From: Candidatus Gottesmanbacteria bacterium
Lineage (GTDB): Bacteria; Patescibacteriota; Microgenomatia; UBA10105; UBA927
Assembly: GCA_030679255.1 (NCBI GenBank)
Contig: JAUXTO010000017.1
Span: 1,925-65,924 of the forward strand
Reading direction: 5' to 3'
DNA: 64,000 bases
Part shown: one piece after another, positions 45,166-56,954 of the stretch
Numbering within the stretch: the stretch's first letter is position 1
How the letters are laid out: each line of letters opens with the position of its first letter
The notes under the pieces: model-generated
The model's database searches: none
Told to the model about the DNA's origin: nothing
What the model saw: the letters and a program-made list of their open reading frames with translations, nothing else
Made by a program: the position numbers and the translations under genes

Positions 45166-45232
45166 TATGTATTCACCACCTTTTAGAAACACTTAACGAA
45201 TAAAATGAGTTTAGTGTTTCTTAAACCCGCCG

Positions 45233-45264
45233 CCCCGCTTCGCTATGGCTTCAGCGAGGCGAGT
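45233..45264. repeat. Third copy of the CCCGCTTCGC-N10-GCGAGGCGAG hairpin (intergenic)
   Basis: CCCCGCTTCGCTATGGCTTCAGCGAGGCGAGT. Confidence 0.82.
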
Positions 45265-45414
45265 CACGCGCCCTTTACGACGTGTACGAATAGTACTGAA
45301 AAGTCGTAAAGCAAGCGTAGGCGGGCTATGAAAAATCGTCAACTTTGTATTTTATCTCACCCATCATAGTACATCCAAACAGCAAAAAACAATCACTCAA
45401 AAACATGACAAGTT

Positions 45415-45442
45415 TTGACACTGGGAAAATATATGGTATACT
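45415..45442 (+). promoter_or_regulatory. Sigma70 promoter of the arg operon
   Basis: TTGACA-16 nt-TATACT with extended -10 TG. Confidence 0.8.
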
Positions 45443-45461: not shown

Positions 45462-45771
45462 GGCGATGAAGGAGAAAGCCCTGAGCTAGTCGAAGGGCCT
45501 CGAGCTCCCGAGCCAGTTTCCGAAAAAATCCGAAAGGAAATTAGGAAACATATAAGGTAATCTTTATCTCTGTCAAGGCAAAGTCCCGAGCGAAGTCGAG
45601 GGGCTGACACAGAGGTTTTTATGTAGCCATTTTGGTCTACTCGGATTACGAAGAAGCGTGGCACCGCGTATATTGCTAAGCTAGTCCGTCTTTGGCGGAC
45701 GAAGCTTTAGCGAAGTCCGCCGCTTCAGGGTTTCACACACGGTTGTGAGATTCTGAACCGGCGGATTTTTT
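45462..45771 (+). ncRNA. T-box riboswitch leader (transcription antitermination), putative Arg specifier
   Basis: Antiterminator GAAGCG-UGGCACC-GCG (45653-45668) pairs with CGC-CGCUUC (45718-45726); overlapping terminator; short Stem I 45462-45514 with a GA/K-turn-like base and CGA at 45501-45503. Confidence 0.8.
45716..45771 (+). terminator. Intrinsic terminator of the T-box leader
   Basis: TCCGCCG-c-TTCAGGGTTTCACA...TGTGAGATTCTGAA-c-CGGCGGA-TTTTTT. Confidence 0.85.
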
Positions 45772-45784
45772 GTTGGAGAAAAAT

Positions 45785-46990
45785 ATGAAAAAAATCGTTT
45801 TAGCATTTTCGGGTGGACTCGATACATCATTTTGCGTGCCATATCTTAAAGAAAAAGGGTACGAGGTTTATGCTGCTACGGTCGATACCGGTGGATTTAC
45901 ACAAAAAGATATTCTAAAAATTAAAGATAGGGCAAAAGAGTTGGATGTCAAAAAACACTACGTTATCGACGGAAAAATATCTCTGTATGACAAGATAGTC
46001 TCCTACGTCATCAAAGGAAATATTCTCAGAGGCGGCGTCTACCCGCTCTGTGCCGGTCCGGAAAGAATTATCCAGGCGATAGAAGTTATAAAAATTGCAA
46101 AAAAAATTGGCGCACAAGCAGTCGCCCACGGGTCAACAGGAGCCGGAAACGATCAGGTGAGATTTGATGTGGCCATCCAAACGCTCGCGCCGGAACTGGA
46201 AATCATTACACCGATCAGAGAGCTGGGAATTACTAGAGGAGGAGAAGTCGCGTTTTTAGAAAAACACGGGATAGCCGTTGAAAAATCCTCGAAAGATTAC
46301 TCAATCAACAAGGGAATGCTTGGTACGACAATCGGCGGCAAGGAGACAAAAAACTCCTGGGAATTACCGCCGGACGAAGTGTACCCGACAGTCGTAAGCA
46401 TTGATACTGCTCCCAAAAACGGTGAGGAAATTATTATTTCTTTTGAAAAAGGATTACCGATGGCTCTAAATGGCAAACCGATGAGTGGAATAGAAATAAT
46501 GAATTATTTAGACAACCTCGGCGCCAAACATGGTGTAGGAAAAGGAATGCATTTGGGAAATACGATTTTAGGAATCAAAGGAAGGGTTGTCTTTGAAGCT
46601 CCAGCAGCCCTGATCCTCATCAAGGCCCATAAGGAACTGGAAAAACTCGTGCTCACAAAGTGGCAGTCATATTGGAAAGATAGTGTATCGGAAGCATACG
46701 GAAATTTTATCCATGAAGGATTGTATTTCGATCCGGTCGTGAATGATATTGAGGCAATGATTGATAGTAGCCAAACGGTAGTCACTGGTGACGTAAAAAT
46801 GAAACTTCATAAAGGAAACATCGTCGTCGTTGGCGTCAAGAGCCCGTATTCGCTTATGGATAAAAGCATCGCGACGTACGGCGAACAAAATCTTCTTTGG
46901 ACCGCGGCTGATGCGGCAGGTTTCAGCAAAATTTATGGGTTGCAAGGAGTTCTGGCGGGAAAGGCAAAAACGTTAGGAGGATCGATATGA
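45785..46990 (+). CDS. argG: Argininosuccinate synthase
   Basis: VLAFSGGLDTS, HGSTGAGNDQVRF, GIKGRVVFEAPA. Confidence 0.95.
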   Translation: MKKIVLAFSGGLDTSFCVPYLKEKGYEVYAATVDTGGFTQKDILKIKDRAKELDVKKHYVIDGKISLYDKIVSYVIKGNILRGGVYPLCAGPERIIQAIEVIKIAKKIGAQAVAHGSTGAGNDQVRFDVAIQTLAPELEIITPIRELGITRGGEVAFLEKHGIAVEKSSKDYSINKGMLGTTIGGKETKNSWELPPDEVYPTVVSIDTAPKNGEEIIISFEKGLPMALNGKPMSGIEIMNYLDNLGAKHGVGKGMHLGNTILGIKGRVVFEAPAALILIKAHKELEKLVLTKWQSYWKDSVSEAYGNFIHEGLYFDPVVNDIEAMIDSSQTVVTGDVKMKLHKGNIVVVGVKSPYSLMDKSIATYGEQNLLWTAADAAGFSKIYGLQGVLAGKAKTLGGSI

Positions 46991-47229
46991 AAGAATTATA
47001 TTTCTTTCTCCAAACAGGAACTATTCTCAAAACTCTATCACCAGCAGGAATGTTTATATCAATCGAAGAAGATGAAGTTGATGCTACGCGTGATTATGAA
47101 GTTGATGGCCTTTGGTGGTATGGAACCAAACAAAATCGTGAACGGACAATTTTATTTAGGCATCAAGTACCATTTGTAACAATCGTTTCAGAAAAAGAAG
47201 CATGGGAAAAAGCATTTAAAGTCGGATAA
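46987..47229 (+). CDS. Small hypothetical protein in the arg operon
   Basis: 80 aa; ATGA overlap with argG; AGGAGG RBS. Confidence 0.65.
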   Translation: MKELYFFLQTGTILKTLSPAGMFISIEEDEVDATRDYEVDGLWWYGTKQNRERTILFRHQVPFVTIVSEKEAWEKAFKVG

Positions 47230-47233
47230 ATAT

Positions 47234-48259
47234 ATGAAACTTAAAAAAATACCATCAATAGTCAAAAATGTTCCGTTGTCCGACGAGGTACAGGTCGGAA
47301 GGTCTATCGTGCCAGAAGAAGGACTCATTATTCTTGTGGAAGCGCTTGACGATGAAGGGAAAAATAATGTGCTGGAATTTACCACTGGCAGATTGGGAAA
47401 ACTGATAAAGGGCGACGTGGTGCCGGCCGTACTCGGAAAAAGAAGGGCCCTCAAAGAATTTGCCGGTGACATACCGCAGGCACTCAAGCCCGGCGATGAG
47501 TTGTATTGGCTTTGTGAAAGCGGACTCGTGGGAGAAATAGTCGGCGTCAACGAGCGCTGGGGAACGCCCATGAAAGTAAAAGTATTGGGAGCCTTGCTTC
47601 ATCACGGAAAAACGCTCAATATTAAACATTCCGCTATTCCCTGGCAAAATGATGTTGTCAAAAGCGCTCCGATTGTGGCGGTTCTCGCCACCTGTATGGA
47701 TTCGGGCAAGACGACGCTCGTTTGTAAACTGGCAGAACACTTTAGAAATAATGGGTTAACCGTTATGGGTGCCAAGCTCACGGGAGTCGCGTTTATGCAG
47801 GATCCTTTTAAGATGAAAGATAACGGACTGGATACCGTTATGGATTTCGTCGATGCCGGGCTGCCTTCGACTTGCGGGAATGCTGAGGATGCGATCAAGG
47901 CCGCCTGTGGAATCATCACGGAATTGAACAACGGAGAGCCCGACCTCATCCTTGCAGAATTTGGAGACGGCATCATCGGAGAATATAACGTGGCGTCAAT
48001 TATCACCCATCCCTCTATCAAAAAACATGTTGTGATGACCGTGGTCGCCGCCAATGATTTGATGGCCGCCTGGGGAGCAAAAAAGAAAATGACGGAATTA
48101 GGATTCACGATCGACATGCTTACCGGACCGGTCGCCAACAGTCACGTCGGCGTTGAGTATATCGAACATAATTTCGGGATACCGGCCGAAAGCAATCAAC
48201 ACGCCATCCCCAAAACAATCGCCATTTTGGAAAAGAAAATGAAGGAGGCAAGTGTATGA
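47234..48259 (+). CDS. DUF1611-like P-loop protein
   Basis: LG.RRAL..FAG, TCMDSGKTT (Walker A-like), GAKLTG, DFVDAGLPST, EFGDG. Confidence 0.72.
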   Translation: MKLKKIPSIVKNVPLSDEVQVGRSIVPEEGLIILVEALDDEGKNNVLEFTTGRLGKLIKGDVVPAVLGKRRALKEFAGDIPQALKPGDELYWLCESGLVGEIVGVNERWGTPMKVKVLGALLHHGKTLNIKHSAIPWQNDVVKSAPIVAVLATCMDSGKTTLVCKLAEHFRNNGLTVMGAKLTGVAFMQDPFKMKDNGLDTVMDFVDAGLPSTCGNAEDAIKAACGIITELNNGEPDLILAEFGDGIIGEYNVASIITHPSIKKHVVMTVVAANDLMAAWGAKKKMTELGFTIDMLTGPVANSHVGVEYIEHNFGIPAESNQHAIPKTIAILEKKMKEASV

Positions 48260-49296
48260 ACAAGCATATAAAACATTTCTATTCGGCACTTGATTATTCG
48301 TCGTCCGAAATACAATATCTCGTCAATCTTGCGCTCAAAATGAAATCCGGATCGGTAAAGAAATCGCTCGCCGGAAAAACACTTGGCATGCTTTTCTTTA
48401 ACCCATCGCTCAGAACCAGGGTTTCTTTTGCCGTCGCGATGCTAAAACTTGGCGGATGTGCCATAGATTTGCCAATCAAGGAAAGTTATACGTTTGAATA
48501 CGGCAATGGAATAGTTATGGACAAGAGCACCATTGAACACGTCAAGGACGCGGCTGGGGTGCTCTCCCGCTATTGTGATGCATTGGCAATCAGATCAAGC
48601 GACCTTATCACGACATCATCGGACAGTGTTGAGGTATCCAGTTGGGAAATGTTGAAAAAAGATACCGTTATCAAAAAATTCATGGAGTATGCCACCGTAC
48701 CGGTCATCAATATGGAATCCAACGTCTACCACCCATGCCAGGGTCTGGGAGACGCTTTGACGATCAAAGAAAAATTGGGAAATCCTAAGGGGAAAAAATA
48801 TGTACTCACGTGGGCCTATCATCCCAAAGCGCTCCCCATGGCAACCCCCAATTCTCAAATACTCGCCGCCTGCGACCTGGGCATGGACGTTGTCATCGCC
48901 AATCCTCCGGGCTGGGAGCTGGAACCATCGATAATAAACGCCATGGCGCTCAGAGCCAAACAAAGTGGCGGCTCGCTTGCCTTCAGTGATTCTATGAATG
49001 AAGCAATTAAGGGAAGCGACGTGGTTTGCGCCAAAAGCTGGGGAGCATTAAAATGCTATGGTAATTGGTCAGAAGAAAAAAAATTAAGAGATCAGCTAAA
49101 ACATTGGATCGTGACCAAAGAAAAAATGTCACTCACTCATCACGCCCTCTTTATGCACTGCTTGCCCGTCAGAAGAAACGTGGAGGCAACCGAAGAAGTA
49201 CTCGATAGTAAAAATTCAGTCATCCTGGATGAAGCGGAAAATAGAATGTGGGCCCAAATGGCGATACTCGAAACAGTATTAGGAGAAACAGTATGA
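48256..49296 (+). CDS. argF: N-acyl(acetyl/succinyl)-ornithine carbamoyltransferase (ArgF')
   Basis: FFNPSLRTR, EHVKD, INMES..HPCQ, WAYHPKALP, KSWG, HCLPVRRNVE, EAENR. Confidence 0.88.
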   Translation: MNKHIKHFYSALDYSSSEIQYLVNLALKMKSGSVKKSLAGKTLGMLFFNPSLRTRVSFAVAMLKLGGCAIDLPIKESYTFEYGNGIVMDKSTIEHVKDAAGVLSRYCDALAIRSSDLITTSSDSVEVSSWEMLKKDTVIKKFMEYATVPVINMESNVYHPCQGLGDALTIKEKLGNPKGKKYVLTWAYHPKALPMATPNSQILAACDLGMDVVIANPPGWELEPSIINAMALRAKQSGGSLAFSDSMNEAIKGSDVVCAKSWGALKCYGNWSEEKKLRDQLKHWIVTKEKMSLTHHALFMHCLPVRRNVEATEEVLDSKNSVILDEAENRMWAQMAILETVLGETV

Positions 49297-50789
49297 AAAA
49301 ACCTAACCTTGTGACCGCGGGATTTATCGTTTCAGAAAAACAATTAGCGCTGGACCACCAGATGGTGTCGTATGATATCTGGGGGACACTGGCGCATGTC
49401 CTTATGCTCTATAAAGAAAACATTCTTAAGAAAGAGTTCGTCAAGCCCATCCTTCAAGCGCTCACTGATATACAAAAAGAAGTGGATGCGGATCAGTTCA
49501 CGATCGACCCAAAAAAAGGAGCGCAACTTTCTCTGGAAGCAAAAATTGTGGAAAAAGCGGGAGATGCCGGATATAGCGTGCACACCGGAAGGAGTAGAAA
49601 CGATCAAGTGATGGTGACCGAACAGCTTTATCTTCGCGACACAATGATCGGGCTCATTGAAAACACGCAGCCAGTTCTTGCGGCACTTCTATCACTCGCA
49701 AAAAAACATCAAGGAACGGTTATGCCGGGCTACACACATATGCAACCGGCCAAGGCAACAAGTTTTGGCCAGTGGGCACTTGCGTATCTTCATGGATTTA
49801 CGAGAGCAATAAAAACCATTACGGACCAATACGAAACGTATAATCTCTGTCCATTGGGTGCATGTGAATCCTATGGAACGAGCTGGCCGCTCGACCGCAC
49901 CTATACCGCGGACCTTCTTGGTTTTCCCAAGGTTTGGGAAATACCGCAGGATGTCGTATCGTCCAGAGGATTTGTGCAACTTGGATATCTGACGGGCATG
50001 CGGGACATCTGCCTGGTAGCGAGTAAACTTGCCCAGGATCTCCTGCTGTTTACGACATTTGAATACGGCATGATAAATCTTGGAGACGACGTCGCTCAGC
50101 GTATGCATCCAATTACCGGTTCGTCCGTCATGGCACAAAAGAAAAACCCTGACGCGTTGGAACTCGTGCGCGCAACAGCACCCCAACTCATAGGATTCAC
50201 GTCGATAGTTGGTAATATTCTGTCCGGGTTACCCATGGGATATAACCGGGATAGCCGCGAGGTGAAAGAATATATTGACCTGGGATTATCAAAAACATTA
50301 TCTATGGTGGGGACGCTTGCATCCGTACTCGCGAGCCTGACGGTCAACAAAAAAAGAATGATGGAATTGGTCACCGCAAACTATTCGATGACGACGGACG
50401 TAGCCGATGCTATCTCGCAGTCATCCGGCGTGGGATACAGGCTTGTCTATAAAGTAGTAGGCCAGGTCGTGGACGAATCCATGAAACGCGGAAAACTTCT
50501 GTCTCTTATATCTGCTCAGGATATTATGAAAAAAGCGTCTACGCTAGGCATTACGCTTCGTGTGACGAACACACAACTCAAAGACGCCATGGACCCACAG
50601 AGGGCGCTTGAAAAGCGGACACACATCGGAGGAAGTACCAAAAAAACCATGGCGATATCTCTTGCACACGGACAAACGTTTATCCACGACGCACGCAAAT
50701 GGGTATCGACCAAAAAACAGATGGTGAGCAATGCAAAATCAAAAACATGGGCTATTGCAAAAAAAATTATTGAGGAAGGAACTCTATGA
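49293..50789 (+). CDS. argH: Argininosuccinate lyase
   Basis: HTGRSRNDQ, MPGYTHMQPA, GSSVMAQKKNPDALELVR, GLPMGYNRD. Confidence 0.92.
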   Translation: MKKPNLVTAGFIVSEKQLALDHQMVSYDIWGTLAHVLMLYKENILKKEFVKPILQALTDIQKEVDADQFTIDPKKGAQLSLEAKIVEKAGDAGYSVHTGRSRNDQVMVTEQLYLRDTMIGLIENTQPVLAALLSLAKKHQGTVMPGYTHMQPAKATSFGQWALAYLHGFTRAIKTITDQYETYNLCPLGACESYGTSWPLDRTYTADLLGFPKVWEIPQDVVSSRGFVQLGYLTGMRDICLVASKLAQDLLLFTTFEYGMINLGDDVAQRMHPITGSSVMAQKKNPDALELVRATAPQLIGFTSIVGNILSGLPMGYNRDSREVKEYIDLGLSKTLSMVGTLASVLASLTVNKKRMMELVTANYSMTTDVADAISQSSGVGYRLVYKVVGQVVDESMKRGKLLSLISAQDIMKKASTLGITLRVTNTQLKDAMDPQRALEKRTHIGGSTKKTMAISLAHGQTFIHDARKWVSTKKQMVSNAKSKTWAIAKKIIEEGTL

Positions 50790-51889
50790 GCACACAAACA
50801 TTACTTACTCGTCTCGTAAAGATTCCGTCATATTCCGGCCAGGAACGCGCATTGGCCGCTTTTATCATGGACTGGGCCAGTGCCCACGGTATGCAAACTA
50901 TATTGCAACAGGGCAATGTCATAATTCCATTTGCGGCGCATGCAAACAAGGCGTTAATCTTTAACGCGCACATGGACACGGTGAAACCCGGACAGGAAAA
51001 CCTCTGGACCTATCCTCCATCAGGACAAAACGCCGGTGTCGTAAAGAACGGAAAATTATATGGATTAGGCGCAAGCGATGACAAAGCTGCGATCGCGTCA
51101 TTCCTACTGTTGGCGTTACAACTCCAAGCGTCTCCCCCGCCCATAGATGTGTTTATTGTTTTTGTGACAGGCGAAGAAACGGACGGATCGGGAAGTCAAT
51201 CGTTTGTACAGTATTTTCAAAAAAAATATGCTACGAAGTACCAAAAAGTGGCAGCCATTATCGGCGAACCCACAGACCTTCAAACGATAGAAATTGGTCA
51301 CAGGGGTAATATGTTCTTACAAATTACGACACAGGGCGATGCTGGCCATGGATCTCAACCAAAAAATATCAAGACCCATGCCGTTATAGAAAACATAAAA
51401 GCGATTGAAAAAATTGTTTCGTTGGAAAAATCGTTCATCAATAAATTTTCCGATCCAATACTCGGTAGTCCATCATGTTGTTTAACGGGCATACAAAGCG
51501 ACACTTCATCACCAAACTCAGTGTCTTCCACCTGCTCATCACTGTGGGATGTCAGAACGACCCCAAAAATACATTCCGAAGTTATTCCTCTCATGCAGAA
51601 AGCGCTGGGAAAAACCGTTGAAATAACCCTCGTTGGGAAACCCGCGTCCTTTGGGTTTACCAAGCCGGATTCTAAAATCGTAACAAAACTCAAGGAGCTT
51701 ATTCCGAGTGTGAAGGTTGCCATCTCCCCCGGCTCCAATGACATTTGTGCCTTTACTGCCGCAGGAATCAGCGCTGTTACATTTGGACCCGGCCAAAAAG
51801 ATACTATACATAAACCCGATGAGTACGTACAATTACAAAAAATTGACGATGCAGTTGATGTATATAAACAGCTCATCTACTCGTGGTAA
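50786..51889 (+). CDS. M20 metallo-deacylase (ArgE/DapE-like)
   Basis: FNAHMDTV, LYGLGASDDK, GEE, IIGEPT, FGPG....IHKPDE. Confidence 0.88.
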   Translation: MSTQTLLTRLVKIPSYSGQERALAAFIMDWASAHGMQTILQQGNVIIPFAAHANKALIFNAHMDTVKPGQENLWTYPPSGQNAGVVKNGKLYGLGASDDKAAIASFLLLALQLQASPPPIDVFIVFVTGEETDGSGSQSFVQYFQKKYATKYQKVAAIIGEPTDLQTIEIGHRGNMFLQITTQGDAGHGSQPKNIKTHAVIENIKAIEKIVSLEKSFINKFSDPILGSPSCCLTGIQSDTSSPNSVSSTCSSLWDVRTTPKIHSEVIPLMQKALGKTVEITLVGKPASFGFTKPDSKIVTKLKELIPSVKVAISPGSNDICAFTAAGISAVTFGPGQKDTIHKPDEYVQLQKIDDAVDVYKQLIYSW

Positions 51890-51893
51890 TGCT

Positions 51894-53066
51894 ATGAACA
51901 ATCTAAACAAGCTTCATCTATCCGGTTACGGTCGTGACTTTCTGCGGACGTGGGACAAATCCGCGGATCATCTTAAAGCCACGCTTGCTGTCGCCCAGAC
52001 CTTGCGCGACTGGCACCGCAAAGGAATATCACCAAAAGTTTTTTCCTCCAGCATGGCCGTCTCCATATTCCGCGATAAATCTACGCGCACAAAATACAGC
52101 TACTCTGCAGCGGCAAATTTACTGGGTCTGGAAATTGAAGACCTCGATGAAAAAAAGTCCCAAATCGCTCATGGGGAAACGATTATGGAAACAGTGAACA
52201 TGCTCTCGTTTCTTACGCGTACGATAGGCATCCGCGACGACATCTTTTTAGGGTTGGGCCACAGCTATATGACAGAAGTGGCCCTAGCTGCCGATTGGGG
52301 ATACGCCAATGGCGTACTCGACCAGCGCCCGAGTGTCATCAATCTCCAATGCGACGAGGACCACCCGACGCAATCATTGTCCGATCTTCTCCACCTCTCC
52401 AATTATTTTGGCGGGTTAGATAAGCTCCGTGGGAAAAACCTCACCATGAGTTGGGCCTACTCCCCTTCCTACGGAAAACCCCTGTCCGTGCCGCAGGGAA
52501 TTATTGCCCTCCTCCCCCGCTTTGGCATTAACGTAACCCTTTCCTATCCCAAGGGCTACAACCTCATTCCGGAGATTGAAAGCCTTGCTACGCGGGAAGC
52601 CAAAAAGGACGGCAGCACATTTCGGATCACCCATGACATGAGAGAGGCATTTATAGATGCAGACATCGTCTATCCCAAGTCATGGGCATCGTATGCCGTG
52701 ATGAGTCGCCGCACCGAGCTCTTGAAAAAAAACTATGTGAAGGGGCTTGAACATCTCGAGGGCGAAGCGCTCGCCCAAAATGCGAAACACAAAGACTGGA
52801 CGTGTACCGAAAAACTCATGAAACAAACGCGTAACGGTAATGCGCTCTATATGCACTGTCTCCCTGCCGATATCAGTGGCGTGAGCTGCAAAGAAGGAGA
52901 GGTTGATGCAAAAGTATTTGAAAAATATAAAAAACAAACGTATACCCAGGCCGGCTACAAACCGTATATTATTGCTGCCATGATCCTCCTCACCCAATTT
53001 GGAGAAAAGACACCGAAAATTCTCCGTTCAATCGGACAAAGAAACCAATCGGTCTTCAATTTTTGA
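51894..53066 (+). CDS. ygeW: Knotted carbamoyltransferase, YgeW family
   Basis: FRDKSTRT, SQIAHGET, IGIRDD, LQCDEDHPTQ, WAYSPSYGKPLSVPQG, YPKSW, HCLPADISGVSC, YKPYIIAAM. Confidence 0.88.
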   Translation: MNNLNKLHLSGYGRDFLRTWDKSADHLKATLAVAQTLRDWHRKGISPKVFSSSMAVSIFRDKSTRTKYSYSAAANLLGLEIEDLDEKKSQIAHGETIMETVNMLSFLTRTIGIRDDIFLGLGHSYMTEVALAADWGYANGVLDQRPSVINLQCDEDHPTQSLSDLLHLSNYFGGLDKLRGKNLTMSWAYSPSYGKPLSVPQGIIALLPRFGINVTLSYPKGYNLIPEIESLATREAKKDGSTFRITHDMREAFIDADIVYPKSWASYAVMSRRTELLKKNYVKGLEHLEGEALAQNAKHKDWTCTEKLMKQTRNGNALYMHCLPADISGVSCKEGEVDAKVFEKYKKQTYTQAGYKPYIIAAMILLTQFGEKTPKILRSIGQRNQSVFNF

Positions 53067-53097
53067 CTTTTAACTTTTGACTTTAGACTTTTGACTT
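53060..53097. repeat. Degenerate (TTTTGAC)5 heptamer run between convergent genes
   Basis: TTTTGACTTTTAACTTTTGACTTTAGACTTTTGACTT. Confidence 0.85.
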
Positions 53098-53566
53098 ATG
53101 TATACCTATCCGCCACCTTGCTCGCCGCATAACTTTCCGGCTTAATCTTCACCGCGTACCCTGACCCCCGAATCATACCGACGATCTCCGTGATCATCTC
53201 ACGGGTCTTGCCAAATTGTCCGATATCCACATGAATTTCCACGTCATATTTGGTCACCCCATCTTTATGAAGGAGGGCCACGACCGTCTCTGCCATCTCG
53301 AGAGACATCGTCGCTTCTTCATACATCCGTTGCCGCAGGACGTACTTTTTTTTGATGACGATCCGTTTCCAAAAATAAATACCACCACGTCCCACGCGAT
53401 GCACGACAATCGTCGTGACAAAATCCACACCCGCCGCATTGTGTGGCTGAGAATCGGTCCCAACCACCAACTGATACTTACTTTCGGGGTCCGCAGCAAG
53501 AAACGCGAGGATATGTTCGCGAATTTGAGGTAATTCTAAATTTCCGTAGGTAGGACTTTGGAACAT
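53096..53566 (-). CDS. RNase H-like YkuK (DUF458) family protein
   Basis: VGTDSQ, HRVGRGG, EIHVDIG..GKT, IKPESYAASKVADR. Confidence 0.88.
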   Translation of the reverse strand: MFQSPTYGNLELPQIREHILAFLAADPESKYQLVVGTDSQPHNAAGVDFVTTIVVHRVGRGGIYFWKRIVIKKKYVLRQRMYEEATMSLEMAETVVALLHKDGVTKYDVEIHVDIGQFGKTREMITEIVGMIRGSGYAVKIKPESYAASKVADRYT

Positions 53567-53604
53567 GATGAGCCGTATCGTACCAAAAAAAGCCACCCCC
53601 ACGC

Positions 53605-53638
53605 AAACAACCCCGCCTCATCGGCGGGGTTGTTTTTT
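53605..53638. terminator. Intrinsic terminator hairpin after the RRM gene
   Basis: AAACAACCCCGCC-tcatc-GGCGGGGTTGTTTTTT. Confidence 0.75.
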
Positions 53639-53655
53639 ACGAATTTCTTTTTATC

Positions 53656-53922
53656 TTATCTTCGTGGTCGCTCTTCCCGTGGTCGTGCTTCATTGACAAC
53701 GAGTGCACGTCCTTCGACATCCTTGCCATTGAGCATTTCAATAGCTTTTTTTGTCTCTTCATCGGTTGCCATTTCGACAAATCCGAAGCCTCGTGATTTA
53801 CCGGAATACTTATCCGAGATCACTTTGGCAGACGTGACAGTTCCTGCTTGAGCAAACAACTGCCCCAAGCCGTCGCTGTCCATGGTGTAGGGAAGATTCC
53901 CAACAAATAAATTGGTAGCCAT
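53656..53922 (-). CDS. RRM (RNP-1) RNA-binding protein
   Basis: LFVGNL (RNP2), RGFGFVEM (RNP1), VNEARPREER. Confidence 0.95.
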   Translation of the reverse strand: MATNLFVGNLPYTMDSDGLGQLFAQAGTVTSAKVISDKYSGKSRGFGFVEMATDEETKKAIEMLNGKDVEGRALVVNEARPREERPRR

Positions 53923-54068
53923 ATTTGGATTTCCTTTCTCCTTAGGTCTTGAAGTGGACACGTAAACGCCTAAGGAGCGTTATCGAGAAGTTTCCCGTTA
54001 ATTCTCCCACAGGGATTGGTCACTTGCCTTTGTTCCCAGGACCGCCTGAGTATAGCAGATTACTCAGG

Positions 54069-54171
54069 AATCTACAAATTTCAAATGGCAAATCTACAAG
54101 ATTGAACCATTAAATTATTTGATATTTCGACATTCATTTGTTTATTTGCAGATTTGTAGATTGGTAGATTT
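54069..54171. repeat. Intergenic inverted array AATCTACAA / TTGTAGATT
   Basis: AATCTACAAAT...AAATCTACAAG on the left, ATTTGTAGATTGGTAGATTT on the right. Confidence 0.65.
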
Positions 54172-54172
54172 A

Positions 54173-54823
54173 TCATTCTATAACCACTTCCTCATCTACC
54201 GCCACATCTTCTGACGTAGACGCTGGTTCCGCAGAGGATTCTGATACCGACGTTTTTGGCGCGGCGAATACAAATGTATTGACCATGGTGCCCTGCGTAC
54301 TCGTCCAAAATTCCGCATCTTCAAGCTTCGCTTCGACCGTCCAGACGATCGAATCAAAAACCGTCCCCGTCACCAACATGCGGGTCACTCCTTCAAGTAT
54401 CGCTTTCTTCCCTGGTTTCCCTCCCAACACCGTATCGAGTATGGCCGCCCCGATAAAACGCTTTTCATTTTTTATCCAACTTGCTGCATCGGAGACGCCC
54501 TTTGCAGCATCTTTACCCCATACGACGACATTCCCGGGGTGAGCCGGGTGAGTAAACTCGAGATGTGCATAGTTTTCGCGGTCTTCGTCATGTTTATTAA
54601 CCACCAATCCTTCAGGATACTGAAATGAAAAACCATTGGGATCATTCCAAGTCAGAAGCTTGACGGGAGCTGATGTTGGAGATACTAGCGATACTGGAGA
54701 TACTGCCTGCTGCGTCGAAATCGGAGCATTCACCACGCGGCTTTTTACCCAAACAAGATATCCGGCGCTCAATATTCCTCCGATAAGCAAACCAACGAAT
54801 ATCGGAAGTCCAAATTTCTTCAT
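54173..54823 (-). CDS. Membrane-anchored PsbP-like hypothetical protein
   Basis: N-terminal TM, W.D..GFSFQYP motif. Confidence 0.65.
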   Translation of the reverse strand: MKKFGLPIFVGLLIGGILSAGYLVWVKSRVVNAPISTQQAVSPVSLVSPTSAPVKLLTWNDPNGFSFQYPEGLVVNKHDEDRENYAHLEFTHPAHPGNVVVWGKDAAKGVSDAASWIKNEKRFIGAAILDTVLGGKPGKKAILEGVTRMLVTGTVFDSIVWTVEAKLEDAEFWTSTQGTMVNTFVFAAPKTSVSESSAEPASTSEDVAVDEEVVIE

Positions 54824-54861
54824 TACCTCCTATTATCGGTGTGCTATACTCATAATGCAAT

Positions 54862-55299
54862 ATGAAAACAATCCGTCTCATGTTTATGGTGATCATCGTC
54901 CTCACGTTTTTTCTTCTCTCCGTGCCGGTTCATGCCGCTAAATCCCGGGTGATCAAAAGTGTTCCTGTCGCCCGGGCAAAAGTTGTCGCCGGTGTTTCCT
55001 ATTCCAGTGCCAAGCTATCATCTTCTTCGAGGAGTGTGATCATAACATTCGCCAATCTCGATAAAATCGCCAAGATTTCCTATATGTTAAGTTACTCCGG
55101 GTCCGGCCAGACACAGGGAGTAGGAGGAGCGATCACTCCAAGTGGGACAACCGATAGCCGGGATCTCTACTTTGGTACCTGCAGCAAAGGAGTCTGCACG
55201 CCGCATTCCTCCATAAAAAATGCCGCGCTCACCGTCACCGCAACACTTAAATCCGGCGGCACGAGAACAAAACGCTACACCCTCCGCCCAAAATGGTAA
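54862..55299 (+). CDS. Secreted basic hypothetical protein
   Basis: Signal peptide ending VHA; FGTCSKGVC motif. Confidence 0.72.
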   Translation: MKTIRLMFMVIIVLTFFLLSVPVHAAKSRVIKSVPVARAKVVAGVSYSSAKLSSSSRSVIITFANLDKIAKISYMLSYSGSGQTQGVGGAITPSGTTDSRDLYFGTCSKGVCTPHSSIKNAALTVTATLKSGGTRTKRYTLRPKW

Positions 55300-55356
55300 A
55301 TTTGATGCCGGGGCTTGACTTTATTCTGCGTTTGAGGCCACACTACTAGTAGGTAT

Positions 55357-55656
55357 ATGAAACTTGCTATTGCCATTCTTTCGTTTGCCGTCATCGGAGT
55401 ATTGGGGTATTTTGGTTATAATTATTACCTCTCAGTCCGCCAACCTTCGAGCGAAACATCAGCGAGTACCCCGATCCCCGCGTTTCAAAATCCCTTTGAC
55501 GAATCAAAACCCGCGACATCATTTGGTAAAACGACAACTCCTTCCCCCACCCCCATTAATCCGTTTGCCGAACCAACGACCAGCTATCAAAATCCTTTTT
55601 CCTCCAGTCCATCAGGATCAACCAAATATACAAACCCGTTTGATGCACTGAGATAA
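55357..55656 (+). CDS. Small single-pass protein with four NPF motifs
   Basis: TM followed by a disordered tail with QNPF, INPF, QNPF, TNPF. Confidence 0.72.
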   Translation: MKLAIAILSFAVIGVLGYFGYNYYLSVRQPSSETSASTPIPAFQNPFDESKPATSFGKTTTPSPTPINPFAEPTTSYQNPFSSSPSGSTKYTNPFDALR

Positions 55657-55658
55657 CT

Positions 55659-56954
55659 ATGAAAAAAAACCTGCTCATTTTTCTTTTGCCTTTTGCCGTT
55701 TTCCTTTTTCCGTCTCTGGTCTCCGCTCAGTCCCGCCTTACGTACCCTATCCCCGAACTCGGATATTGCCGTGACGCGAAGGAATGCTCCCTTTATTGCG
55801 AAATTCCCCAAAACAAAGCCACGTGCTGGAGTTATGGGAAGTACAAACTGGAAAGTAATGTTTTGGGAGTCACCACCATAAGTGTGGAAGAGAAGCAGAT
55901 GATGGAAACGAAAGCAAAAGAATACAATATCACTTTCCCCATCGTTGATTTAGGCAATTGTGCCGGACCGCAGGAATGCCGAGACTTCTGCGAAGAGTCG
56001 AGTAATCAAACAACCTGCATGGACTTTGCTAAAAAGAAAGGGTTCCAAAAAGAAGTCGGGCGTCCCGACGGAATGGATCCTAAAAAACGTACCGAACTCA
56101 TGGAAAAGGCTAAAACGGAATTGGGCTGCACGTCCATGGATTCATGTAAAAACATATGTGAAACCGATCAAACCCGTTGTGAAGCGTTTGCCAAAAAAAA
56201 CGGCATATACCAGGGGCCTCCTTCTCAAGAGAAAGAACGGTATAATCCTCAGGAAAAAATGAAACTTATTGACAACGCAAAAGTCGAACTTGGATGCACA
56301 TCCATGGAATCGTGTAAATCTGTCTGTGAGCAAAACCCCGAGCGCTGCATGAACTTTGCCAAAAAACATGGATTTGACCGTCCGGAGCTGCCTGAACGGC
56401 GAGAAAAACAAGAGGAAAATGATGAAATGAATGGCCCGGAAGAAATGGAGATAGAGAGCCGTAAAAAGGAATTCATGGCAGGAAAATGCGACAGTGATGA
56501 CTCATGTAAAAAGTACTGCCAAGAAAATCCCGATGAGTGTCCCGGATTCCGGGGTAACGATCGCAACAGCATCCAACAGCCGTCATCCGGCGTTCAATCA
56601 ATCGGCGGCATGAAAAATTATGTTGGTCCTTCCGGCTGCCGGACTGAAGCTGAATGCAAAAACTGGTGCACCGATCACCCGGAAAAATGTCCGGGGTTTA
56701 CCGAAGGCAAAATACGTGAAGAATCTTCCAAACGCGAGTATGAACTCAAGAAAAAACAAATAGAACAGAATCAAGAAACTCAAAAGCGGCAGTTTGAAAC
56801 GAATCGCGAGATGATGCAACAAAACTACGAGTATCGGCCCCCGAGCGGCGGATCACCAAGCTACCCCTCTACTTCGACACAGCCTGCATATACCGGCACC
56901 TCGCCATCCCAGGGAACTTACACACCGCCTTCCACACAGCCTGCTGCTCCATAA
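55659..56954 (+). CDS. Secreted Cys-rich repeat protein
   Basis: Signal peptide; six C-x5-C-x3-C-x6/7-C units (e.g. LGCTSMESCKSVCEQNPERC); P/S/T-rich tail. Confidence 0.82.
   Translation: MKKNLLIFLLPFAVFLFPSLVSAQSRLTYPIPELGYCRDAKECSLYCEIPQNKATCWSYGKYKLESNVLGVTTISVEEKQMMETKAKEYNITFPIVDLGNCAGPQECRDFCEESSNQTTCMDFAKKKGFQKEVGRPDGMDPKKRTELMEKAKTELGCTSMDSCKNICETDQTRCEAFAKKNGIYQGPPSQEKERYNPQEKMKLIDNAKVELGCTSMESCKSVCEQNPERCMNFAKKHGFDRPELPERREKQEENDEMNGPEEMEIESRKKEFMAGKCDSDDSCKKYCQENPDECPGFRGNDRNSIQQPSSGVQSIGGMKNYVGPSGCRTEAECKNWCTDHPEKCPGFTEGKIREESSKREYELKKKQIEQNQETQKRQFETNREMMQQNYEYRPPSGGSPSYPSTSTQPAYTGTSPSQGTYTPPSTQPAAP

Follow-up and report, generated by a model that had tools for sequence, protein, structure and literature searches.

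A predicted arginine T-box leader without an elbow-docking platform upstream of the argG operon in a Candidatus Gottesmanbacteria genome

The leader at positions 45462-45771 of the window, i.e., the whole 64,000 nt stretch of DNA analysed here, is very probably a T-box leader, in which the codon CGA is predicted from the sequence to pair with tRNA-Arg(UCG), and uncharged tRNA would open the argG operon lying downstream. When tRNA is absent or charged, the terminator would form and transcription would stop at 45771; uncharged tRNA-Arg would instead pair through its UCG anticodon with CGA and through its free 3' end with the UGGC of the antiterminator bulge, and the antiterminator stabilised in this way would allow RNA polymerase to enter the argG operon, with production of the genes for the last arginine steps. 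The host is an ultra-small groundwater (CPR) bacterium, a CPR host having been suspected by the initial annotation, made from the letters alone: its one named relative is Candidatus Gottesmanbacteria, and the genomes of its relatives measure 0.5-1.9 Mb (the source genome is labelled G000, the relatives G001 and so on). That annotation had described a transcription-type arginine T-box lacking the distal double T-loop, and each of the elements it named was found in the sequence where it had placed them, nonetheless its classification of Stem I required correction.

The promoter, the leader elements and the operon genes described below lie on the + strand. The leader is preceded by a sigma-70-type promoter (45415-45442; TTGACA, 16 nt spacer, TG-n-TATACT) that matched the consensus at 11 of 12 positions in the promoter scan and carries in addition the extended -10 TG; a similar promoter was read at a comparable distance 5' of Stem I in the homologous leaders, and was weaker in G025. 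About 20 nt separate the promoter from the structured leader, which ends with the U6 tract at 45766-45771, and after a gap of 13 nt follows argG, the first gene of the arginine operon. The ribosome-binding site GGAG (45775-45778) and argG (ATG at 45785) together occupy 45775-46990, and the profile search identified the argG product as argininosuccinate synthase (NF001770, 376.7 bits, cut-off 334). Six further frames (46987-53066) follow: two genes without assigned function, of 80 and 341 aa, located between argG and the carbamoyltransferase (46987-48259), an N-acetylornithine carbamoyltransferase (48256-49296, 399.9 bits), argH (49248-50789), an M20 deacylase (50786-51889) and a second carbamoyltransferase-like gene (51717-53066). 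Since these six frames are on the same strand and abut or overlap, the leader appears to head a likely operon for the last arginine steps, whose genes are presumably co-transcribed. The 80- and 341-residue genes gave no match to a Pfam family, the larger one having a weak MobB-like P-loop match alone. With this leader, the operon would stand out as an arginine pathway under regulation, in a genome that has little other biosynthesis.

Other elements were observed around this and related leaders. A GC-rich palindromic element lies just 5' of the promoter (45228-45330), and its motif CGUGUACGAAUAGUACUGAAAAG is shared with a stretch located 3' of the terminator of the G254 leader, while another element, placed between terminator and start codon, is common to the G382 leader and to the serS leader of the source genome. 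A second ArgG-like gene of the source genome (G000:C29:34004-35173, 37% identity) follows genes for ATP synthase beta and a CBS-domain protein and has no T-box core upstream; in relatives, the paralogue of this type sits in T-box-led argH-argG operons.

In the search suggested by the initial annotation, the Rfam T-box model recognised the leader weakly. The model RF00230 aligned along its entire length (positions 1-219) with the segment 45457-45696, E being 7e-4 when 651 nt were searched and 3.8e-4 for the genome as a whole, yet the score of 26.4 bits is far under the cut-off of 93, and once the gathering threshold was applied, Rfam gave no match anywhere in the window. The alignment covers the K-turn, the adjoining helix, Stem II and GUGGCACCGCG, and the Rfam alignments of the leader and of its homologues, together with the conservation of the K-turn, of Stem II and of the bulge UGGNACC, bear out the T-box identity. 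The fold of the whole leader had a z-score of -5.4, none of 100 shuffled sequences folding equally well. T-box matches at E ≤ 0.001 were present in 75 of the 81 family genomes and exceeded the Rfam cut-off in 10 of the 81, which means that standard annotation misses nearly all the T-boxes of the family.

Stem I (45462-45514) was defined by sequence reading, by the Rfam alignment and by comparison of homologues, and folds within 53 nt as had been proposed. It consists of a base helix GGC/GCC, a K-turn formed by GAUGA (45465-45469) with GA (45510-45511), a helix GGAG (45471-45474)/CUCC (45505-45508), a side loop AAA / CU-CGA-G and a cap hairpin. The K-turn aligns to the K-turn columns of the Rfam model and its flanking helices covary. 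The specifier and its 3' purine (45501-45504) comprise CGA at 45501-45503 and G at 45504 and stand immediately 5' of the CUCC strand, the register of codon, purine and helix being that of canonical T-boxes. The initial annotation had called this Stem I ultrashort; in the terms of the part of the review PMC7583486 that we consulted, an ultrashort Stem I carries the codon in the apical loop and an intermediate one carries it in a side bulge below a short cap, and the leader of the source genome, with its codon in a side loop and its short cap, is therefore of the intermediate type, ultrashort forms being present in sister leaders. In two of the homologous leaders (L039 of G025 and L205 of G382) we also observed two extra hairpins (about 45 nt) that separate the GA of the K-turn from the 3' base-helix strand and turn Stem I into a multi-way junction.

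The cap hairpin above the specifier loop (45478-45498, GCCC-UGAGCUAGUCGAA-GGGC) is a copy of a hairpin repeat of 20 nt, YCCYGAGCGNAGUCGARGGR, of which the source genome holds 14 copies. Two of them are inside the argG leader, the first capping Stem I and the second capping the inner hairpin of Stem III (45583-45604); other copies in the same genome fall inside long open frames, and in relatives the repeat caps Stem II. Two of the copies, on contig C22 (about 50854-55759), fall within a single open frame of 21,156 codons. In every homologous leader the cap is a perfect hairpin, unrelated in sequence and in length, with 4 to about 10 bp and a loop whose size ranges from 3 to about 13 nt. The Rfam alignment replaces 74 Stem I model positions with 28 nt in the source genome, and neither this alignment nor the homologue comparison revealed a double T-loop platform, an AG bulge or a distal loop in its Stem I, in agreement with the predicted loss of the distal double T-loop. 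As the cap varies freely among homologues in both sequence and length, it holds no conserved platform for docking of the tRNA elbow; capture of the tRNA would then rest on Stem I and Stem II at the anticodon and on the contact with the 3' end, and this joint use of the two stems would resemble that of the actinobacterial ileS T-boxes, which are translational.

Stem II (45516-45549) is formed by GUUUCC/GGAAAC around an S-turn-type loop, GAAAAAAU / AAAUUA, and closed by a CC-GAAA-GG tip, and its counterparts in the homologues are matched by the Stem II columns of the Rfam model. The region that follows, where the Stem IIA/B pseudoknot would have its place, is made up of a linker and of a branched, covarying domain that replaces Stem III (45557-45649) and was delimited with the helix tables and by reading of the homologues. 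Its outer helix pairs GUAAUC (45557-45562) with GAUUAC (45644-45649) and by eye differs in sequence between leaders yet remains complementary. The inner hairpin pairs UCUCUGU (45567-45573) with ACAGAGG (45609-45615) and contains the loop CAAGGC and the second repeat copy; a U5 run (45616-45620) and a small hairpin (45623-45641) complete the domain. This branched element is a marker of the leaders that we call here the Arg clade. The idea that its hairpin followed by U could be a general trait of short-stem T-boxes was rejected, as in the source genome it is confined to the argG leader.

Comparison of the leaders supports these helices. In the helix tables, built from strands read off at set distances from fixed anchors, the base helix of Stem I was paired in 35 of 36 cells with 4 distinct versions, the K-turn-proximal helix of Stem I in 48 of 48 with 5 versions, Stem II in 60 of 60 with 9 versions and the inner hairpin of Stem III in 66 of 66 with 6 versions, and Stem II strands swapped across leaders paired at 2.68 of 5 positions. 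Covariation of the argG leaders, proposed by the initial annotation as a check, was indeed recovered in a MAFFT alignment of nine leaders (A2), whose covariation score of 0.620 compares with 0.257 for shuffles and was reached by none of 500. In the nine-leader alignment both-sided changes occurred in 8 of the 13 pairs, a value reached by 1 of 500 shuffles, and the covariation score fell to 0.30-0.37 when the partner was shifted one column aside. Paired cells amounted to 86.3% against 67.2% in shuffles, and the pair counts of this alignment understate the pairing of Stem I because MAFFT placed three leaders one column off.

The S-turn strand of Stem II reads AAUUA in the source genome alone and AAGUA in the other 11 leaders, a variant that may weaken its Stem II. 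This change could be taken as a sign that only a relic of the switch is left in this genome, decaying or constitutive, with a terminator that no longer responds to tRNA, and the presence within it of two genomic repeat copies and of a further insert would point in the same direction. Moreover, PMC7583486, in the part available to us, treats the double T-loop as essential for transcriptional T-boxes: its section 6.2 states that these generally require a long Stem I with a double T-loop, in keeping with the rule, derived from structural and kinetic work, that co-transcriptional switches need this element for fast tRNA capture and that only translational ones can dispense with it. Since the review holds it essential for terminator-type T-boxes, a switch without the platform may be slow or leaky. 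Nonetheless, every helix has remained intact, and so have the K-turn, codon, UGGC bulge, promoter and terminator; the inserts are confined to hairpin tips, the source genome's aspS T-box shows the identical S-turn variant, and the operon would be silent if its terminator could never open. We therefore consider a relic improbable, and a leader responsive to tRNA-Arg the preferred reading.

The T-box sequence and the antiterminator (45653-45726) were identified by fold calculation, Rfam alignment and homologues. Helix A1 pairs GAAGCG (45653-45658) with CGCUUC (45721-45726), helix A2 pairs GCG (45666-45668) with CGC (45718-45720), and the bulge UGGCACC is found at 45659-45665. The Rfam model places the 3' half of the antiterminator poorly, the pairing with CGC-CGCUUC (45718-45726) being the correct one, which is also that recognised by the initial annotation. 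When the 3' half of the terminator was left out, the fold constrained to the antiterminator reached -33.4 kcal/mol against -33.6 for the unconstrained minimum. The same A1 and A2 helices occur in G003 and G025, where they are closed by a loop of 7-9 nt without a hairpin insert, and in other leaders A1 and A2 differ in sequence but still pair. On top of A2 the source genome carries a 37-nt insert that folds as a hairpin (45675-45711); it is shared with G009 and absent from G003 and G025, different inserts occupying this place in other leaders, and being limited to some close relatives it is likely dispensable.

The intrinsic terminator (45712-45771) is composed of a long hairpin (45712-45769) and of the U6 tract (45766-45771), and it was not listed by a simple terminator scan, its long stem having one mismatch. 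Its hairpin, with a free energy of -36.2 kcal/mol, is the stronger of the two structures and also forms in the minimum-energy fold calculated for the entire leader; the 3' strands of A2 and A1 fall within its 5' arm, so the two folds are mutually exclusive, as had been anticipated. A switch acting on translation, alone or additionally, like the short-Stem-I T-boxes of Actinobacteria, would agree with the short Stem I and with the inserts on A2 and Stem III, traits that PMC7583486, in the part consulted, ties to translational T-boxes. Against it, what competes with the antiterminator is a long hairpin with a U6 tract at its end, GGAG lies 3' of the U run and outside both folds, and a hairpin with at least five U ends each of the 13 leaders of argG orthologues, with the ribosome-binding site outside the hairpin. 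Regulation of translation thus appears very improbable, and these observations argue for the transcription type that the initial annotation had assigned.

ArgG orthologues were collected at E ≤ 1e-110 and occurred in 6 of 81 family genomes, 10 of 401 sampled class genomes and 6 of 21 second-family genomes, the order-level and second-family searches yielding no additional ones. This gave 14 genomes with an orthologue in all, of which G077 was left out, its gene being cut by the contig end. In the 13 others (49-85% identity) a promoter-fed T-box leader was present upstream of the gene. The one named record among them comes from a Candidatus Gottesmanbacteria genome, which is the same as G382. 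The next ArgG relatives belong to Gemmatimonadota and Bacteroidota at about 50% identity; the scan of metagenomes returned 80 ArgG loci, all at ≤53% identity and none with a similar leader, and among 160 ArgG loci examined, these 80 included, a T-box core was found upstream in one, the Gottesmanbacteria record. The homologous leaders scored very differently against RF00230. With its full-length Stem I, G218 exceeded the cut-off (104.3 bits), and G201 (44.9), G290 (39.7), G001 (38.9), G186 (35.2), G003 (34.2), G025 (31.6) and G382 (25.1) gave lower values, while G009, G371, G254 and G387 showed no match at E ≤ 0.1. A classic terminator without an elbow platform was found in 12 of the 13.

The specifier was an arginine codon in all 13 leaders: CGA in 11, where it is invariant among the nine aligned in A2, AGA in G218 and CGC in G387, where a 5-bp hairpin with the loop CU-CGC-AA makes up Stem I. 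In G201 and G218 the specifier loop is canonical (AGUA strand, GAA-codon-purine) and the arginine codon occupies the canonical slot, which anchors the codon register to known T-boxes. As a guide to the register, other T-boxes of the source genome gave no answer, the serS loop ACUUUCCC and the aspS loop CUAACAA fitting no single register. The base 3' of the codon is G or, in G001, A, so that the arginine codon followed by a purine seen by the initial annotation recurs in the same register. Reading UCG (Ser) or another overlapping triplet as the specifier has next to no probability, even if UCGAG contains UCG, CGA and GAG and tRNA-Ser commonly carries G73 too, since the U 5' of the codon is replaced by G (G290, G215) or A (G201, G229) while CGA is retained, AGA and CGC take its place in sister leaders, and the genes downstream are arginine genes, argS included.

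The arginine reading also finds a partner in the tRNA complement of the source genome, whose tRNA-Arg genes have the anticodons GCG, CCG, UCU, UCG and CCU. With CGA, tRNA-Arg(UCG) would form three Watson-Crick pairs; its acceptor stem is GCGCCUA/UAGGCGC followed by G73, the ARAGORN drawing being shifted by one base according to comparison with G001. The discriminator G73, which had been predicted from the UGGC bulge, is present in all five tRNA-Arg genes of the source genome, and the bulge hence fits. G73 also occurs in the tRNA-Arg(UCG) of G001, G009 and G290, yet in G009 and G290 the bulge reads UGGU despite it, which would give a G.U pair. The same pair would result in G218, where UGGU meets the G73 of tRNA-Arg(UCU), and in G387, again with UGGU, the one tRNA-Arg found has A73 but is the UCG isoacceptor and not the reader of CGC. 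The fit between bulge base and discriminator is thus not a strict covariation.

A search blind to the codon extended the Arg clade beyond the argG orthologues. The pattern consisted of the Stem III hairpin, the loop CAAGG and a following U run, and it matched 72 of 401 class genomes, the reversed control pattern matching few. Automatic retrieval returned 30 loci, eight with a downstream T-box core (six known leaders and two new ones); the other 22, with no T-box core downstream, were treated as chance matches. Another 13 places, compact argG-like hairpins from families f1 and f2, were chosen by eye, and at several of these a T-box match had been recorded; other listed matches of the pattern, e.g., many in family f26, were left out. 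All 15 further leaders showed CGA and a classic terminator without an elbow platform, leader counts that, together with those of the orthologues, overstate the independent support because the leaders are related by descent and are not 28 independent trials. Stem I was a 4-bp hairpin with the pentaloop UCGAG in ten, had a side loop as in the source genome in four, and carried a canonical S-turn loop in one. The first recognisable genes downstream were argH-argG in eight leaders and argF-argG in one; argS was downstream in three (as the first gene in G087, but as the third one in both G037 and G082), a gene without assignment and then argH in one, and no recognised genes in one (G024). With the genes downstream of G098 left out of the scan, at least 12 of the 15 precede argH, argG, argF or argS. 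The apparent link of CGA with arginine genes, argS included, is consistent throughout.

The source genome holds other T-boxes, which precede tyrS, serS, glyA-glyS, aspS, trpS and proS. In two cases the first gene downstream is a tRNA gene of the T-box's own specificity, with second copies of these tRNAs elsewhere in the genome: one T-box is followed by tRNA-Tyr, a methyltransferase, a MetE-like gene and tyrS (G000:C25:23682-27334), the other by tRNA-Trp, a racemase and a trpS fusion (G000:C23:81541-84805). On the minus strand of contig C38 (4182 and 4345), two UGGA T-box cores stand 160 nt apart 5' of glyA-glyS, likely a tandem glycine T-box.

The Stem I of the Arg clade ranges from full length, in a single leader of 104 bits, to a 4-bp UCGAG hairpin, always on a terminator platform. 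We may speculate that the Arg T-boxes of this CPR class form a natural truncation series, from full-length to S-turn-bearing, to hairpin-capped and to a bare 4-bp UCGAG hairpin on one conserved terminator platform, that elbow docking is unneeded and that the Stem III hairpin with its U run is a programmed pause, a proposal that is tentative and, in our judgement, rather doubtful. If it were correct, elbow docking by the double T-loop would be unnecessary for co-transcriptional sensing of tRNA, and the Stem III hairpin with its run of five to seven U would buy the time once saved by the platform now lost. Independently of the series, the clade retains one full-length form and so offers matched natural constructs for measuring the contribution of the platform. 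The present analysis contributes a single Arg clade spanning every length of Stem I on one terminator platform, the intermediate form of Stem I and the link to an acetyl-pathway operon that begins with argG.

According to the part of the comparative study PMC3766115 that we consulted, T-boxes occur only in Firmicutes, Actinobacteria, Chloroflexi, Thermus/Deinococcus and Geobacter; the present leaders extend them to CPR bacteria. Among the papers listed by our literature search, none dealt with T-boxes in CPR bacteria or with a T-box in an argG leader, and the accessible portions of Wels 2008, Soutourina 2013 and Sun 2013 make no mention of arginine T-boxes before argG. Arginine is among the T-box specificities recorded in TBDB, as stated in the part of PMC7778990 available; that database is described there as built from hits of the Rfam model and from a class II model run on Actinobacteria, and given this construction 12 of the 13 leaders analysed here would fall below its detection score.

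With the Class I T-boxes (RF00230, e.g., Bacillus subtilis tyrS and glyQS) the leader shares the K-turn at the base of Stem I, the codon and purine before the lower helix, the UGGN bulge, an antiterminator competing with an intrinsic terminator and a promoter of its own, and its sister in G218 passes the Rfam cut-off for this class. Unlike them, it lacks the AG bulge, the distal loop and the S-turn strand of the specifier loop, it has a branched Stem III and a hairpin insert on A2, and its bit score stays well short of the cut-off. The extra hairpin on top of the antiterminator recalls Stem Sa of the staphylococcal glyS T-boxes, as portrayed in section 6.2 of PMC7583486, although the two are unrelated in sequence. 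The same section considers loss of the double T-loop typical of translational T-boxes, in which Stem III and helix A2 often bear inserts. The leader of the source genome combines these "translational" traits with a terminator, and together with its relatives it breaks, in sequence terms, the rule that such switches need a double T-loop. The leader also resembles the translational ileS T-boxes of Actinobacteria (Sherwood et al. 2015, via reviews; Mycobacterium tuberculosis ileS, PMC11297988), whose available descriptions report a Stem I without an elbow platform, an S-turn Stem II adjoining Stem I and inserts in the discriminator domain, all as found here; with respect to those descriptions, the present leader has a terminator in place of a sequestered ribosome-binding site, a specifier for Arg instead of Ile, biosynthetic genes rather than a synthetase downstream, and a CPR host.
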